Assembly (NCBI GenBank): GCA_024697865.1
Contig: JAILSC010000019.1
Coordinates: forward strand, 23,526-87,525
Reading direction: 5' to 3'
Length of the DNA: 64,000 nucleotides
Origin: Candidatus Saccharimonadota bacterium
GTDB lineage: Bacteria; Patescibacteriota; Saccharimonadia; Saccharimonadales; Saccharimonadaceae
Of this stretch, positions 1,607 to 64,000 are shown piece by piece. Positions within the stretch are counted from its first letter, which is position 1. Each line of letters begins with the position of its first letter. Position numbers and translations under genes: made by a program. The notes beneath the pieces were generated by a model. That model worked only from the letters and a program-made list of their open reading frames with translations. It was not told where the DNA came from and made no database searches.

Positions 1607-1764
1607 TTGGGAAAACCTCAGATATTGAAATCAAAGCTCAATAACCTTTCCTGAGGACCATAAGCTTGGGCGAGCGCCCTCGAGCGTGTCCGAAGGGGAG
1701 GTTATGGGCTTTGATACCCATATCCGCTGTCTTCCCAGTTGTTAATGTTAGTTTTATTATACCA
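1607..1764 (-). promoter_or_regulatory. pnp extended -10 promoter (TGGTATAAT, 1756-1764) plus a nested-stem 5' leader of about 155 nt
   Basis: Complementary arms 1630-1647/1699-1715 and 1607-1616/1729-1738 read directly from the sequence. Confidence 0.6.
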
Positions 1765-4820: not shown

Positions 4821-5537
4821 ATGGAAGACCAAATTATTCTCATCGACAAACCCGCAAATATCTCGTCTTTTGGTGTCGTGGCCAAAGTCCGAGGGCATTT
4901 GAAAGCTCAATTTAGACACAAAATCAAAGTTGGCCACACTGGTACTTTGGACCCCTTTGCGACCGGACTTCTAATTCTTCTCACTGGCAAAAACACCAAA
5001 AAATCTTCCGATTTTTTAAAGCTCGATAAAGTCTATGAAGCCACCTTAAAGCTAGGGTTCGTCTCCTCTACCGGTGACCCCGAGGGGGAGATTCAAGAAT
5101 ATTCAGTTTCGGGGCCACGTCCCTCGCGCCCGTCTTCACGGAGCTCAGGCGCTCCCTCTCGGCAGCAGCCTCCGAAATCCCCGAAACTAAACACTCTTGA
5201 ATCCACCTTAGCATCCTTTGTCGGTAAGATAGAACAACGCCCGCCCAAGTTTTCAGCCATCAAAATCGGCGGCCAACGCGCTTATAAACTAGCCCGCCAA
5301 GGCCAAGATTTTGAAATCCCCACCCGCGAAGTCGAGATCTACTCTCTCGAAATTCTAAACTACAATTACCCAGAACTCACTATCCGTTGTCACGTTTCTA
5401 GTGGCACTTACATCCGTACTTTAGCTGAAGACATCGGTAAAAAACTCGGCACTGGTGCCTACCTCACCGCCCTTCGCCGCACTAAAATCGCCGACTACTC
5501 CGTAGACGACGCCCTTAAATTGGCAGACTTCTCTTAA
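4821..5537 (+). CDS. truB: tRNA pseudouridine(55) synthase TruB carrying an in-frame palindromic insert
   Basis: LIDKP, KVGHTGTLDPFATGLL, PPKFSAIKIGGQRAYKLAR, SSGTYIRTLAEDIG. Confidence 0.96.
   Translation: MEDQIILIDKPANISSFGVVAKVRGHLKAQFRHKIKVGHTGTLDPFATGLLILLTGKNTKKSSDFLKLDKVYEATLKLGFVSSTGDPEGEIQEYSVSGPRPSRPSSRSSGAPSRQQPPKSPKLNTLESTLASFVGKIEQRPPKFSAIKIGGQRAYKLARQGQDFEIPTREVEIYSLEILNYNYPELTIRCHVSSGTYIRTLAEDIGKKLGTGAYLTALRRTKIADYSVDDALKLADFS
5090..5203. repeat. In-frame palindromic element (core family 1) in truB
   Basis: 25-bp inverted arms (5090-5114/5179-5203, 3 mismatches) around a 64-bp GC-rich core homologous to the recX and polA cores. Confidence 0.85.
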
Positions 5538-7835: not shown

Positions 7836-8451
7836 TCAACTTCTCGTCATCATATTTGGCTCGCTTTTTGGCAATCATTTTGTCAATTTCTTCTTCGTCA
7901 TTTCGCCCACTTAGCACTTCGTCAATTATCTCCTTGACCACTCCCTTTTTTACTAGCTCCATTCTTAAACGTTTTTGCGAAATCCCTTTTTTTACGAATC
8001 GATTTTCCACATAATATTCCGCGAACTTCCAATCATCCACATAGCCCTTGGTTTTCAATTTTCTAATTATTTCTTCCGAAAAATCAAAGGAGTCTGCTGA
8101 GGATTTTGTGGACCCAACCGGGTCCACAGGAAGTGACTGAGCCCCGTAAAGACGGGCGCGAAGGAACGTATCCGCAGAAGACTTCTTGATTTTTTTGCGA
8201 AACAAATATTCTTTAACTTCTCGCTCGCTCCGCGGCCGCACCAACACCCACTCTAACGTTCTCTGATATAGCTTACCGAATTCCGAGGCTTTCTTGCACT
8301 CTATTAATTTCTCCTCTGTCAGCGTTTGCCCAATTTTTAACTTCAAATCCACTACCTGCGTCACGTCCAGGGAAAAGGCAAACTTGCCACTTACGAACAC
8401 ATTCACTCGATTTGGGTTTTTGACACCCTGTTTTAGGTCTGTAATTTCCAT
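7762..8451 (-). CDS. recX: Regulatory protein RecX carrying an in-frame palindromic insert
   Basis: RPRSEREVKEYL, GYVDD..FAE.YV, S.KRLRMELVKKGV, YL.RQGFSY; immediately downstream of recA. Confidence 0.92.
   Translation of the reverse strand: MEITDLKQGVKNPNRVNVFVSGKFAFSLDVTQVVDLKLKIGQTLTEEKLIECKKASEFGKLYQRTLEWVLVRPRSEREVKEYLFRKKIKKSSADTFLRARLYGAQSLPVDPVGSTKSSADSFDFSEEIIRKLKTKGYVDDWKFAEYYVENRFVKKGISQKRLRMELVKKGVVKEIIDEVLSGRNDEEEIDKMIAKKRAKYDDEKLISYLCRQGFSYQLAQSRVREFEKD
8079..8194. repeat. In-frame palindromic element (core family 1) in recX
   Basis: Imperfect arms 8079-8104/8170-8194 around a 65-bp core (8105-8169) that is 53/65 identical to the polA core. Confidence 0.85.
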
Positions 8452-16103: not shown

Positions 16104-16115
16104 AACTTTTTAATC

Positions 16116-16233
16116 TGGGGTGGGATAGCGGGATCGAACCGCCGTTTGCCCCTTGGGACGCTTCGGCGGTTCCAGCCGCAATACGCCACGCTGAAACCAT
16201 TGTGTGGGGTGGGATAGCGGGATCGAACCGCCG
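16116..16233. repeat. 29-bp direct repeat of the tRNA-His 3' end separated by a 60-bp insert (core family 2)
   Basis: TGGGGTGGGATAGCGGGATCGAACCGCCG at 16116-16144 and 16205-16233. Confidence 0.9.
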
Positions 16234-46689: not shown

Positions 46690-46735
46690 ATTCTCCACAT
46701 TATATCACACCTTGGCGTTTTCCGCAAGATGTTAA

Positions 46736-46812
46736 AACAAAAATGGCGGAACCGTTTGCCCCTTGGGACGCTCCGGTGGAGCCGTTTTTGTGCAACAAAA
46801 ATGGCGGAACCG
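46736..46812. repeat. 19-bp direct repeat of the tRNA-Asp 3' end plus trailer, separated by a 39-bp insert (core family 2)
   Basis: AACAAAAATGGCGGAACCG at 46736-46754 and 46794-46812. Confidence 0.88.
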
Positions 46813-51270: not shown

Positions 51271-53670
51271 CTATAATTCTCCCCAATTATTACCGGTTGT
51301 AACCTCTACGGCAAGTTTTATTTCTAATTCTGGTGCCACCGACTCCATTTCTTTCTGCAAAATCTGAGCCACCCGTTCAGCCAATTTAGTTTCGCACTCT
51401 ACAATTAAAGAGTCGTGTACTTGCATTACTAATTCCGCTCCAGCAGGCAACACTGCGGCCACTTTAATCATCGCCCGTTTCATTAGATCCGCCTCCGTTC
51501 CCTGAATTGGCATATTTTGTGCCGCTCTCTCCGCTGCTTGGCGAATCACAAAATTAGTCGACTTTACGTCCGGTGTTGGCCGTCTTCGGCCATAGTAAGT
51601 CTCCACGTACCCATTTTCTCGCGCTTGTTTTAAGGTTGCGTCCAAATACTTCTTGATTGGCGCTCTTAGCTCAAAATAATTATCAATAAATTCTTTAGCT
51701 TGCCCAATTGGCATCTTTGCTGCATCCGCTAAGCCTTTTACGCTCATGCCATAAAGTATGCCAAAATTAATCACTTTTGCTGCTCGACGCTGCGCTTTCG
51801 TTACTTTGTTCAGTGATACATCAAACGCTTCCGCCGCAGTCTTAGTGTGAATGTCTATTCCTTTATTGAAATCCTCTATTAATGCTTGGTCACCAGCTAG
51901 TACTGCCGCTAGCCTCAATTCGAACTGCGAATAATCCGCCGAAACCAATACTTTCCCAGCAGGCGCTACAAAGCCCGTCCGAATTCGTTTTCCTTCTTCC
52001 GTCCTCACCGGAATATTTTGCAAATTCGGGTCCTTTGATGACAACCGTCCCGTTGCCGTTACATTCTGCGTAAAGGTCGTATGAATTCGCCCCTTCTCGT
52101 CTGCCAATTCCGGCATCGGCGTGATGTAAGTCGATAATAATTTCGCAGCTTCTCGGTATTCCATTAATTTCGGGATCACTAGATGCAAATCTTTTAGTTT
52201 TTGAAGTTCCTTCGCTCCGGTGGAATATCCCCTAGTAGTTTTTTTGATTCCCTTTACTGGCAACCGAAGATCCACAAATAACACTTCCGATAACTGCACC
52301 GGTGAATTTACGTTAAATTCTTTACCCGCTAAGTCCCATATTTCTCGCTCTAATCGCCCCACCTCTTCCGTATATTCTTTCTTCAAATTCTCAAAATACT
52401 TTCGGTCAATCAACATCCCCTTCTTTTCCATCTTGTAGAGTACCGGTATCAGCGGCAAATCAAACTCCTTATAGACTTGATAAAGTCTCGGCATTTTTTC
52501 AAACTCTGCTTGTTGTCTTGTATAAGCCTCTGTTGTATCTGTCGCCTCAAACAATGTCGCCTGTTCCCGCTTTAGAGGATTCAATAAAAACCCTGCCTGG
52601 CCCACATCCCAAAACTTTTCACCTGCTAAAATCTTCTCCGCCACCTTCTCGTTATGATGCATTAATGATTTTACGTCATAATCGATAATTATAGCTGAGC
52701 TCAATTGCTTCTGATCCGAAAATTTGTGAGCCCTGCTGGGCTCACGAGAAGTGACTGAGCCCTGTGAAGACAGGCGCGAAGGAACGTGTCTCGGAGCAGG
52801 AGCTTCGAGCTCACTAAAATTAAATTTTCTAATTAATGAATTAAACTCTAACTTCTTTAGCCCATTAACTACTTTTTCAGGATCAAATTCAAAATCGGGA
52901 ATCTCGGCTAGCTTCACCGGCGCATCAAACATAATCTGCGCCAACTGACGTGACATATATGCTGATTCTTTTCCCTTAATCAATTTTTTCTGCACCGAGC
53001 CTTTAATTTCATCAATATGCGCATAAATCTCATCCAAATTCCCATATTCGTTCAGTAGTTTTGCTGCCGTCTTTTCTCCCACTCCTGGTACTCCCGGAAT
53101 ATTGTCTGATGCGTCTCCCTTCAAGGCCTTGAGATCTAAAAATTGTGATTTCGAAATCCCATATTTTTCTTCTACTTCTTTTACGTCAATTTGTTCAATG
53201 TTAGAAAACCCTTTCAAGATCCGCCACATGTGAGTGTTATTATCTACGATCTGCAACATATCTAAATCCGACGAAATAATATAGGTCTCCCAACCCCCAG
53301 CCTCATCCGCTTGTCGGCTCAAAGTACCGATAATATCGTCTGCTTCAAATTTTGACACTTCTATAAAGGCCCAACCCAAATCATTAATTAATTCTTCAAG
53401 GAGCGGTATTTGCGCGTAAAAATCATCACCTGGCTTTACTCGGCCCGCCTTATAATCGGCAAAAATCTTTCTCCGACTCTCCGCCGAATCTCGTGAATCC
53501 CACGCTACCACTACTTTAGTTGGCGCCAACCGTTTTACAATCTCCATTGCAATCGCTGCAAAACCATACACACCTCCCGTTGGCGTACCATCAGACAAAC
53601 TCAAAGCCCCCATCGCATAATATCCTCGATAAAATACCGATTTGCCGTCAATCAGTACTAATCGCTTCAT
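51271..53670 (-). CDS. polA: DNA polymerase I (5'-3' exonuclease plus polymerase, shortened middle domain) carrying an in-frame palindromic insert
   Basis: LIDGKS..YR.YYA, EADDIIG, GDASDNIPGV.G.GEKTA, TGRLSS..PNLQNIP, SADYSQFELR, AKVINFG..YG, QVHDSL. Confidence 0.97.
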   Translation of the reverse strand: MKRLVLIDGKSVFYRGYYAMGALSLSDGTPTGGVYGFAAIAMEIVKRLAPTKVVVAWDSRDSAESRRKIFADYKAGRVKPGDDFYAQIPLLEELINDLGWAFIEVSKFEADDIIGTLSRQADEAGGWETYIISSDLDMLQIVDNNTHMWRILKGFSNIEQIDVKEVEEKYGISKSQFLDLKALKGDASDNIPGVPGVGEKTAAKLLNEYGNLDEIYAHIDEIKGSVQKKLIKGKESAYMSRQLAQIMFDAPVKLAEIPDFEFDPEKVVNGLKKLEFNSLIRKFNFSELEAPAPRHVPSRLSSQGSVTSREPSRAHKFSDQKQLSSAIIIDYDVKSLMHHNEKVAEKILAGEKFWDVGQAGFLLNPLKREQATLFEATDTTEAYTRQQAEFEKMPRLYQVYKEFDLPLIPVLYKMEKKGMLIDRKYFENLKKEYTEEVGRLEREIWDLAGKEFNVNSPVQLSEVLFVDLRLPVKGIKKTTRGYSTGAKELQKLKDLHLVIPKLMEYREAAKLLSTYITPMPELADEKGRIHTTFTQNVTATGRLSSKDPNLQNIPVRTEEGKRIRTGFVAPAGKVLVSADYSQFELRLAAVLAGDQALIEDFNKGIDIHTKTAAEAFDVSLNKVTKAQRRAAKVINFGILYGMSVKGLADAAKMPIGQAKEFIDNYFELRAPIKKYLDATLKQARENGYVETYYGRRRPTPDVKSTNFVIRQAAERAAQNMPIQGTEADLMKRAMIKVAAVLPAGAELVMQVHDSLIVECETKLAERVAQILQKEMESVAPELEIKLAVEVTTGNNWGEL
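52696..52813. repeat. In-frame palindromic element (core family 1) in polA
   Basis: Imperfect arms 52696-52721/52789-52813 around a 65-bp core (52723-52787). Confidence 0.85.
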
Positions 53671-62344: not shown

Positions 62345-62781
62345 ACATCACTACTCTAAAAGAATATACCCCCGAAACTGCCACTCGCGTTCGCGAATTA
62401 TTAATCCAACTTTCCCGCAGCGGCAAAGACAAAGGAGAAATCCCCAAAGAATGGTTCGAGGATTTAATTGCTTCACCTTGGCATGATATGCTAATTGCCG
62501 AAGAAGATGGTCAAATTCTTGGCATCGCTACTCTTTCTATTACTATGGGTCCCGGCATTCGCAAAAATGCCTACCTCGAAGATTTCGTCACCGACTCCAC
62601 AATCCGCGGCAAAGGCATCGGTAGTCAATTATGGGACGCTATGCTCGATTGGGCCGCTAAGAAAGGCTGCAAGAATCTTGAATTCACCTGTGGCAACGGT
62701 CGTGAAGCTTCACAAGAATTTTACAAACACAAAGGCGCCGCAGTTTACGACACTAATTTCTTCCGCAAACCTATCGCATAG
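62341..62781 (+). CDS. GNAT-family acetyltransferase
   Basis: LEDFVTD..IRGKGIGSQL, FYKHKG. Confidence 0.88.
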   Translation: MNITTLKEYTPETATRVRELLIQLSRSGKDKGEIPKEWFEDLIASPWHDMLIAEEDGQILGIATLSITMGPGIRKNAYLEDFVTDSTIRGKGIGSQLWDAMLDWAAKKGCKNLEFTCGNGREASQEFYKHKGAAVYDTNFFRKPIA

Positions 62782-64000
62782 ATTACTACTGGTAGCAAAT
62801 AAATATGCAGCGCATTGGGAAGCCCCGAGAAGAACAATAGCGAAACCCCATAAGCTATCAACAAACCAATCAATACCACCCTCAAAGGGCTCTGCCAAAA
62901 AGTTCGCACCATCAAAATCAAGGTCAGCACACATAGTGCCGCTCCTACCATGCCAGTTTCTAATAGGATCGAAACGTATTGATTTTGCACAATTTCTTTT
63001 GGTGCTGACGATAATCCATTTACATATAATGCTTGTCCTGCACCGCCCAAGCCTACGCCGAACATTACCGTACTAAAATCTTGGCGCCAAACCCGAAATG
63101 CCGATTCCGACAGTTCCAGTCTCGTATCCGTTGATTCAGCCACATACCCGTCGAACACTGCCTCCGTTGAACCGTCTGTTGCGCCCACATCCCCACTATC
63201 ATTTATTCCAAGGTCAATCACACCCAATGATAAATGATTAATTACCTTGGATATTCCGGTAAAATAAGTATCGTCAGTTCTTGATACCTGTGCCATAATT
63301 CCCTGAATATTCAAAGTAAATAAGAACGACAAAACAATCACTAATCCGATCGACAACCATCGCCATTTTTTAGTTTGAACTATTTGCCAAATCATCATCA
63401 CTAGCGTAGCTACCAGTAATGCATAAATCGCCCCCCGCGAAAACGTCAAAAACAATGTAGCGGTGAAGACGAAGAAAAGGATGGTATAATGCTTCAGCGA
63501 AGCGGCATTTCGAAGCGCGGCAGCGCGAGAGTTAGCGCCGGCCGCCCGTGGCGCTCGCCCCTTGGGACGCGAATTGCCGAAGGCAAACGGGCCGGCCGGA
63601 CGCGGCCGCGAGCGAAGCATTAACCAGCCAACCACTATTGTTGGTGCCAACAATAAATTTCCCATAAACTGCGGCTCAATCGCAAATCCATCCGGATGCG
63701 GAAAGCCAAACATAGAATACGTACATCCAGCACACATCAAGCTATATTCTCGTGGCACTCCCACTAGATCCAATACACATTGAATCCAACACCACGCACA
63801 AATCAGTAGTGAGGACCCAAAAAACGCTTTCCAGAATTTGACCTTCAAGCTCTCTTTTTTAAATAGCTCACGTAAACTTATAATCCCGTCTATCGCCAAA
63901 TATAATAGCCACACAATTCCCACCACCAATATTCCGCGCAAAGCATTCAGTGACCATAATACTGACAAAGAAAGCCAGATCGGCAACAGCAACCACATCC
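62745..64000 (-). CDS. O-antigen ligase (WaaL/Wzy_C)-like membrane protein with an in-frame GC-rich insert; probably 5'-truncated by the window edge
   Basis: Multiple TM helices; EPQF.GN, LTFSRGA, FGVGLGG, NQYVSILLETG.VG. Confidence 0.75.
   Translation of the reverse strand, partial: MWLLLPIWLSLSVLWSLNALRGILVVGIVWLLYLAIDGIISLRELFKKESLKVKFWKAFFGSSLLICAWCWIQCVLDLVGVPREYSLMCAGCTYSMFGFPHPDGFAIEPQFMGNLLLAPTIVVGWLMLRSRPRPAGPFAFGNSRPKGRAPRAAGANSRAAALRNAASLKHYTILFFVFTATLFLTFSRGAIYALLVATLVMMIWQIVQTKKWRWLSIGLVIVLSFLFTLNIQGIMAQVSRTDDTYFTGISKVINHLSLGVIDLGINDSGDVGATDGSTEAVFDGYVAESTDTRLELSESAFRVWRQDFSTVMFGVGLGGAGQALYVNGLSSAPKEIVQNQYVSILLETGMVGAALCVLTLILMVRTFWQSPLRVVLIGLLIAYGVSLLFFSGLPNALHIYLLPVVIYAIGLRKKLVS
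63487..63622. repeat. In-frame GC-rich nested palindrome (links core families 2 and 4)
   Basis: Outer arms TAATGCTTC/GAAGCATTA; contains GCCCCTTGGGACGC (63557-63570), shared with the tRNA-His and tRNA-Asp inserts. Confidence 0.8.

Follow-up and report, generated by a model that had tools for sequence, protein, structure and literature searches.

The DNA analysed here, a 64,000-nt stretch of a Candidatus Saccharimonadota genome (contig JAILSC010000019.1, positions 23,526 to 87,525; hereafter the window), ends within a gene for an O-antigen-ligase-like membrane protein. Inside this gene lies a GC-rich nested palindrome (63487-63622), one copy of a family of short repeats that is restricted to the genus Candidatus Nanosyncoccus and inserted in frame in unrelated genes. 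The features of the locus are as follows.

62745..64000, - strand: host gene, O-antigen-ligase-like membrane protein; the full open reading frame (ORF) of 489 aa extends beyond the end of the window, to window-equivalent position 64214
63482..63626, + strand: whole hairpin (outer stem and core), from folding; the stronger strand is antisense to the host mRNA
63487..63495, no strand: left outer arm TAATGCTTC, locus-specific; inverted repeat, 9/9 complementary; the arms differ at every other copy
63614..63622, no strand: right outer arm GAAGCATTA, locus-specific; in genomes G006 and G025, pairing is retained between arms of another sequence at the orthologous copy
63498..63613, + strand: conserved repeat core, 83 model positions plus a 33-nt insertion, from a covariance-model match
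63515..63526, + strand: hairpin 1, GCGC-GGCA-GCGC; folds, and is helix 3 of the alignment (94% paired, almost invariant)
63535..63549, + strand: 5' strand of hairpin 2, GCGCCGGCCGCCCGT; helix 4 of the alignment (97.5% paired, 10/14 pairs changed on both sides)
63587..63603, + strand: 3' strand of hairpin 2, ACGGGCCGGCCGGACGC; same helix 4 evidence
63554..63586, + strand: 33-nt apical module CTCGCCCCTTGGGACGCGAATTGCCGAAGGCAA; a gap in the alignment, the other 8 copies of the genome being without it
63557..63570, + strand: 'family-2' 14-mer GCCCCTTGGGACGC; 4 exact genome copies versus 0.0017 expected
63574..63586, + strand: mini hairpin TTGCC-GAA-GGCAA, from folding

An initial annotation, made from the letters alone, had described the segment as far more GC-rich than its flanks and had named its outer arms, inner stem and hairpin. 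All of these were recovered by composition, inverted-repeat and fold analysis. The GC content is 0.684 (68.4%) for the segment, 0.43 for the left flank, 0.434 for the right flank and 0.44 for the whole window. The outer arms are complementary throughout, the inner stem CCGGCCGCCC / GGCCGGCCGG is 90% complementary and the predicted fold includes the TTGCC-GAA-GGCAA hairpin. Both strands were folded, as had been proposed: the + strand reaches -77.5 kcal/mol (z = -3.5, with 0/200 shuffles as good) and the - strand -73.2 kcal/mol (z = -2.2). The segment is thus a nested palindrome. The sequence AGCGAAGC is present in both outer parts of the window copy (63496-63503 and 63611-63618). The heptamer GCGAAGC forms a DNA mini-hairpin of unusual stability.

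The part of the host ORF that lies inside the window encodes 417 of the 489 aa, and the protein carries the Pfam domain Wzy_C (PF04932) at aa 246-427 (E = 1.6e-14). Read in the host frame, the segment gives LMLRSRPRPAGPFAFGNSRPKGRAPRAAGANSRAAALRNAASLKHY (aa 198-243), which adds about 38-46 residues directly N-terminal of Wzy_C; of the inserted residues, 10 are Arg or Lys and none is acidic (Asp/Glu). Orthologs of the host were present in 40 of the 41 genomes of the genus. In G063, G002, G062 and G031, only a short basic loop, e.g. FGLKKNKQ, is found at the position of the insert, between PQFMGNLLLAP..W and LFLTFSRG, and residues 203-240 of the query are missing from the G063 ortholog. The alignment therefore bears out the in-frame insertion of about 40 aa that had been proposed. 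Of the two transmembrane helices between which it had been placed, a clear hydrophobic helix follows the insert (aa 245-263), and the hydrophobic stretch upstream (aa 183-200) was under the threshold used. In the orthologs the loop was either absent or accompanied by stems kept through compensatory changes, and not preserved as a peptide with its stems destroyed. Orthologous sites that are empty were found in the Wzy_C and TrmD genes and at about 20 further sites. These segments are insertions and not ancestral parts of the genes.

Other palindromic inserts were seen in the same places in other species. The Wzy_C loop of G026, G017 and G028 (loci L055, L057, L058) holds unrelated-looking palindromic inserts with their own arms, and the same holds for the TrmD loop of G028, G012, G005, G011 and G006 (L085-L090). 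These loops are thus either recurrent targets or rare sites where inserts are tolerated.

A sequence-level search of the 0.71-Mb (709-kb) genome that carries the window (G000) returned 8 more copies, so that the core is present 9 times. The core is ~77-83 nt long and reads TCGGGG-N-ATTTCGGAGCGCGGCAGCGCGAGA...GACGCGRCCCCGA; in the 8 further copies it is ~77 nt long (GGGG-N-ATTTCGGAGCGCGGCAGCGCGAGAGTTAGCGCCGGCCGCCCGTGGCGACGGGCCGGCCGGACGCGACCCCGA). The window core was matched by the covariance model with 69.7 bits (G000:C4:87023-87138, E = 1.1e-16), and its identity to other copies is 96% over 50 nt and 92% over 25 nt. With 9 genome copies and 89 non-redundant public ones, the segment is not unique, and it is not the 'most complete' one in the sense of the parent that had been considered possible. 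Window positions 63554-63586 are absent from all 8 further copies; the window copy is thus a core with an extra 33 nt inserted at the apex of its second hairpin. A sub-variant of hairpin 2 was also noticed, in which GCGAGC stands in place of the GCTCGC of the related copies L144, L146 and L163, a 6-nt inversion. GCGAGC is carried by G000 C24:13360-13436 and C21:8527-8603 and by L117, L128, L145, L151_659 and L189, and in this sub-variant the lower stem of hairpin 2 is a direct and not an inverted repeat.

The 9 genome copies all lie within long ORFs and keep the frame. According to Pfam, the hosts are PriA, TrmD, a UvrD-type helicase, LeuRS (in its anticodon-binding domain), ArgRS, MnmA, a FemAB-family protein and Wzy_C, the ninth having a weak DNA polymerase III-like match; the TrmD domain is split by its insert and was matched in two stretches. 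Six of the 9 copies are antisense to their host and read SGSRPAGPSPRAAGANSRAAALRN, and the other three are sense and read GGFRSAAARELAPAARGDGPAGR. As the two orientations yield different peptides from the same nucleotides, the conserved entity is the nucleotide sequence and not the peptide. Among the 89 non-redundant public copies, 75 lie in frames that stay open over 40 codons or more to either side and 14 lie near ORF starts; none was found without an open frame. Four consensus-open frames are in use, two of which dominate (55 and 23 of the 89 copies), and frames with a consensus stop are occupied exclusively by copies that are themselves open in that frame.

The dominance of two of the four open frames speaks for a selected protein module, i.e. 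a basic disordered loop gained for membrane topology or for nucleic-acid binding, the palindrome being incidental. The lack of acidic residues beside 10 Arg/Lys, and the replacement of a short basic loop of the orthologs (KKNK, RIKK), point the same way. This explanation is nevertheless very unlikely: unrelated peptides are read from the same nucleotides, which lie in either orientation and in several frames; the host enzymes are themselves unrelated; it is the nucleotides that are conserved and covary; and the insert is missing from many orthologs.

To define the distribution of the family, the core was searched for at the DNA level and with a covariance model built from 29 diverse copies. 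Of 37 genomes of the genus covered by the DNA search, 19 carry the core (1-15 copies per genome), and 24 other genera of the order gave no match. With the covariance model, only the own genus was matched, out of 120 genera of the order (151 genomes). An exact 23-mer was present in at least 114 stretches in public genomes, all of ruminant-gut Saccharibacteria, and those carriers that are named to genus are Candidatus Nanosyncoccus. The repeat family is thus restricted to this genus. In the literature searched, no description of such elements in Saccharibacteria or Nanosyncoccus was found. The covariance model also raised the number of members in the own genome to 18, comprising the 9 copies and the following diverged relatives, 7 of which lie within long ORFs.

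Window 5107-5186: diverged relative, in truB
Window 8095-8179: diverged relative, in recX
Window 52713-52797: diverged relative
Elsewhere in G000: diverged relatives at C8:46627, C2:91285, C4:15643, C22:2982, C6:10996 and C21:23196

The termini of the truB insert (TCGGGG-ATTTCGGAG ... GACGYGRCCCCGA) are those of the 77-nt family, which suggests a single superfamily, represented in this genome by 18 or more members.

We analyzed whether the stems are conserved as pairs. In the alignment of 29 sequences, 92.5% of the cells were paired versus 78.5% in shuffles, and 99 cells showed a double change versus 33.5 in shuffles, a number as high being reached in 0/500 shuffles; slid controls paired at 29-44%. 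Between orthologous copies, many arm positions differ, with matching changes in the partner arm. In hairpin 2 (helix 4), 68 changes were double and 5 were single (G-U type), a pattern that is more like that of a DNA palindrome than that of a typical RNA family. The core was also found to have a polarity. Its + strand folds better than the complement in 77 of 79 copies, irrespective of the orientation of the host. When mismatches in the arms were counted in 86 copies (own genome and L112-L191), the transition mismatches were G.T on the core + strand 84 times versus 31. This bias has the same sign in sense copies (22 to 5) and antisense copies (62 to 26), and it persists when counted by site (24 vs 4, p = 1.8e-4). 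A mutation bias of the host strand predicts opposite signs for the two orientation classes and therefore fails to explain the asymmetry. Since the sign is the same in both, the relevant folded form appears to be single-stranded, always with the same polarity, and either DNA or RNA. The orientation of the copies mainly tracks the strand of the host gene, and comparison with the local GC skew gave no clean link to the direction of replication; copies of the same orientation were mixed in GC skew (15 positive, 11 negative).

Covariation in hairpin 2 and in the arms, the better folding of one fixed strand and the enrichment on that strand of mismatches compatible with G.U pairing, in either host orientation, would also suit a structured RNA. 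It might act as a cis-regulatory hairpin of the mRNA, or as an independent RNA, small or antisense, transcribed from the core + strand, coding in frame being retained only for tolerance. We regard this as unlikely. The better-folding strand is antisense to the host mRNA in about two thirds of the copies, including the window copy, and the pair changes in helix 4 are overwhelmingly from one Watson-Crick pair to another. Furthermore, all copies lie within ORFs of functionally unrelated genes and have locus-specific outer stems, and no Rfam family was matched: scanning the 9 loci against Rfam 15 at permissive E-values returned only chance-level matches far below the gathering scores.

The 33-nt module sets the window copy apart. 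The 14-mer GCCCCTTGGGACGC, whose presence the initial annotation had pointed out, has three other exact copies. Those at window 16148 and 46758 are adjacent to tRNA genes, and the one at C5:10099 (contig 5) caps a leader-like hairpin. At both tRNA sites (16113-16175 and 46723-46790), GCCCCTTGGGACGC is the loop of a hairpin in which the stem reproduces the 3' end of the adjacent tRNA gene (- strand). The mini hairpin TTGCC-GAA-GGCAA has no other copy in the genome, up to 2 mismatches. With at most one mismatch, the whole module was found at the same position of the core in two other genomes, at L161 (an aminopeptidase-like gene) and L174 (Der). The arms of these two copies differ from those of the window copy, and the short form is found at the same sites in other genomes. 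In L157, the 16-mer CGCCCCTTGGGACGCG and a different mini hairpin (GACCC-GCA-GGGTC) occupy the same place. Other apical inserts at the module position, in other copies, range from about 37 to 95 nt, those of L122, L143 and L132 being of about 95 nt. GAA and GCA triloops closed by C-G are recurrent in the apical modules.

The short form is found in 8 of the 9 copies of the genome and in about 95% of the public copies. The Wzy_C copies of G006, G025, L173, L184 and L165 are short and do not have the 33 nt. Metagenomes show a much higher depth for the short junction than for the long; the repeat interrupts the unitigs of metagenome assemblies, so the presence or absence of the 33 nt is not phased at the window locus. 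As the short form is the usual one and the orthologous Wzy_C copies are without the module, the window copy is a derived composite and not a parent: it is a rare long variant in which a small module is nested in the apical loop of the core. The long form either spread or was copied between occupied sites.

The initial annotation had offered, as a possibility, the converse reading, in which the 136-bp segment is the complete parent and the tRNA-adjacent motif (family 2) and one in the pnp leader (family 4) are its decay fragments. Two sequence matches speak for it, both above chance. The first is the 14-mer described above. The second is an 11-mer at 63550-63560 that has 3 genome copies versus 0.1 expected, one of them the previously noted reverse complement at 1668-1678 in the pnp leader. 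The latter link amounts to a GGCG-CT-CGCC mini-palindrome and is weak evidence. Given in addition that the instances of family 2 share only 14-16 nt and none of the core, which forms a separate family, that the family-2 motif is found alone in hairpins, and that other inserts occupy the position of the module in other copies, we give almost no credence to the notion of a common parent. Two paralogous leader-like hairpins were also seen, at G000 C5:10040-10170 and at window 1630-1715 (GAGGACC.TAAGCTTGG ... AGCGTGTCCGA); they differ only at the apex, which is CGCCCCTTGGGACGCG in one and GGGCGAGCGCCC in the other.

The outer arms, unlike the core, are specific to each locus. Every copy is flanked by inverted repeats that differ from copy to copy. 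The outer stem has a median length of 27 nt, including 8-9 nt of the core end, and is at least 20 nt long in 74 of 85 copies; flanks given a wrong partner reached this pairing in 0/85. The origin of the arms was judged where an uninterrupted ortholog was at hand. In TrmD, MnmA, L130, L164, L170 and L177, one arm corresponds to conserved host codons and the other is an inverted copy of it. In TrmD, the left arm GAGTTTGCA corresponds to the conserved EFA codons (EFA/KFA) and the right arm is TGCAAACTC-like, a pattern found in two lineages and with both orientations of the core. The arms are GAACCCGAGATA / TATCTCGGGTTC in L130 and GATGGCATTTTC / GAAAATGCCATC in L164, and in L170 the copied side is the other one. 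A metagenome contig of a ~96% identical relative has an empty TrmD site, with 30 nt (QMAKELPEGH) in place of 126 nt, and a contig of run X3 on L005:1448/1570 has the core flipped at the TrmD site. At the MnmA, TrmD, LeuRS and Der sites, too, the orientation of the core varies between genomes, which is consistent with flipping via the inverted arms or with repeated insertion.

The correlation between arm length and core identity that would be expected if arms grew with age was not found (Spearman 0.17, p = 0.13). The reach of the arms into residues aligned with the host was noisy, as loops align poorly, and gives a rough indication only. No constant direct repeat marking a direct target-site duplication was found at the junctions, the flanks being inverted copies. 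A shared target motif was looked for in the empty sites: some carry CCC-GAA-GGG-like mini-palindromes or TTTCGGGAG and others carry nothing of the kind. The mini-palindromes seen in uninterrupted target loops were CCC-GAA-GGG, CCCTAAAGGG and CCGATGGG (in G000 empty sites, at G000 C24 near 1435-2649 and in a contig of run X8), and the TTTCGGGAG of one empty loop resembles ATTTCGGAG of the element. These features may reflect a target preference or microhomology.

Combined, these results are best accounted for, and in our judgement probably correctly, by a family of short GC-rich palindromic inserts, selfish or formerly mobile, that lie in frame, are read through by the ribosome and have outer arms made locally. 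The recurring unit would be the core TCGGGG...CCCCGA with its two hairpins, the arms not being carried between sites. Inserts would lodge in tolerant surface loops and persist only where the frame stays intact, and survival would be limited to loops in which a flexible Arg/Ala/Gly/Pro peptide does no harm. With read-through by the ribosome, purifying selection would explain why every genic copy is in frame and free of stops. In the protein considered here, the result would be a disordered and strongly basic Arg/Ala/Pro/Gly loop, probably cytoplasmic, before Wzy_C. Each arm pair would arise by inverted copying of the adjacent host sequence: on a folded single strand, synthesis would fold back or switch template where it meets the strong hairpin of the core, and the two arms would then be kept complementary. 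Such arms would allow the core to flip, the conserved termini would allow core variants to be swapped at a fixed site, and variants may be exchanged between occupied sites by gene conversion.

The open frames also bear on whether the insert could be absent from the protein, either removed from the mRNA or bypassed by the ribosome as for the 'byp' elements of Magnusiomyces or in phage T4 gene 60. A GC-rich hairpin within coding sequence in an AT-rich genome, with a long stem that draws both flanks together, is suggestive of such an intervening sequence. An open frame would be needless if the insert were skipped, and every genic copy is in the host frame and stop-free, including those that use frames with a stop in the consensus. 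In runs labelled as RNA, contigs contain the core with both arms, which fits retention of the insert in RNA and argues weakly against removal, since these contigs are unstranded and DNA carry-over is possible. An intervening sequence is therefore extremely improbable, and a translational bypass element of the byp or T4 gene 60 type was rejected because all genic copies are in frame and open.

Enzymes that could mobilize the family were searched for in the genus. The Y1/RAYT (REP-associated tyrosine) transposase domain PF01797 was found, among 37 genomes, only in G023, which has no copy, and is thus absent from every carrier of the element. Repetitive extragenic palindromic (REP) elements or bacterial interspersed mosaic elements (BIME) served by a RAYT were rejected on this ground and because the copies are genic. 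Reverse transcriptase (PF00078, RVT_1) is absent from the own genome and its presence was unrelated to copy number; RVT_1 genes of about 380-400 aa occur in 29 of the 37 genomes, often 2-4 in each.

Several points weigh against the explanation that we favour. Firstly, no transposase or other mobilizing enzyme was found, the search having covered Y1 and RVT_1. Secondly, no fresh insertion was caught together with its exact pre-insertion allele, and at several other sites both proximal parts of the arms look new with respect to the reference. Thirdly, the high identity of the cores could result partly from gene conversion or constraint and not from recent movement. Fourthly, the fixed-strand G.T asymmetry is beyond what a purely double-stranded palindrome would predict, and it could be the sign of a functional single-stranded form, RNA or DNA. 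Finally, translation through the insert, very probable in our view, is judged from frame conservation.

A more specific scheme, which we put forward only tentatively, is that of a mobile DNA that spreads as a folded single strand of fixed element polarity, without a dedicated transposase, and enters by template switching. Entry would take place in coding loops or at the apices of existing hairpins, and each event would duplicate the target in inverted form and so generate the locus-specific arms; core variants would later be exchanged and flipped between occupied sites. Under this scheme the tRNA-adjacent hairpins (family 2), the 65-nt family of truB and recX and the 77-nt family might all be products of one mechanism.

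Elements with some of these properties are known. Quasipalindrome template-switch mutagenesis (Ripley model; E. coli) would account for how an imperfect palindrome is made, kept perfect and extended outward without selection, as one arm or flank is copied onto the other. It is no family of elements but a process of mutation, and it leaves the transfer of the core to new genes and the G.T asymmetry unexplained. The mobile GC clusters and double-hairpin elements of fungal mitochondria, with the 'byp' elements of Magnusiomyces capitatus, are GC-rich hairpin mini-elements of AT-rich reduced genomes that are located in coding and RNA genes and nested in one another. We know of no enzyme that serves them. 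Ribosomes bypass the byp elements, which do not have to be in frame; the Nanosyncoccus copies, in contrast, are all in frame and open, reside in a bacterial chromosome and have another arm architecture. Miniature inverted-repeat transposable elements (MITE; Correia/NEMIS, ERIC, BOX, RUP) and REP/BIME sequences are likewise small palindromes that are non-autonomous and present in many copies. The terminal inverted repeats of MITEs are constant, their target-site duplications are direct and their sites are mostly intergenic. In the Nanosyncoccus family, constancy at the termini is confined to the 6 bp TCGGGG/CCCCGA, each locus has long arms of its own, the duplication of the target is inverted and the copies are genic; REP sequences are extragenic and occur with RAYT (Y1) transposases.

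By analogy, the closest known phenomenon is that of the Rickettsia palindromic elements (RPEs), the resemblance being one of function. Locus-specific arms are, to our knowledge, not found in RPEs. Both groups are short palindromic repeats of small reduced genomes, with many in-frame copies in unrelated housekeeping genes, an apparent translation as an extra peptide compatible with the fold of the host protein, and no known transposase of their own. The Nanosyncoccus family shows the features of this class in being multi-copy, short and palindromic, in frame in unrelated hosts and absent from orthologs. RPEs are described as repeats of about 150 bp that lie in frame within unrelated genes (Ogata et al. 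2000 and 2002, as summarised in PMC10969869), and about half of the first 44 insertions are given as genic (PMC10969869). The Nanosyncoccus core is of 77-83 nt, and nearly all copies are genic, in both orientations and several frames. Their arms are locus-specific and copied from the host flank, and small modules nest in the apical loop. As the family belongs to Saccharibacteria, another phylum, descent from RPE-1 to RPE-10 is not expected. Known types of element leave the arm architecture and the strand polarity unexplained.

The inserts have practical effects, as Pfam domains are split and metagenome assemblies are broken at the repeat, and they constitute genus-specific markers. The arms copied from the host flank, the nesting at hairpin tips, the flipped cores at the same site and the fixed folding strand are features that could expose the mechanism. 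If the favoured explanation is true, tiny episymbiotic bacteria of the Candidate Phyla Radiation carry RPE-type selfish DNA inside the most essential of genes, where it would lengthen TrmD, LeuRS, PriA and other proteins by 25-45 residues.

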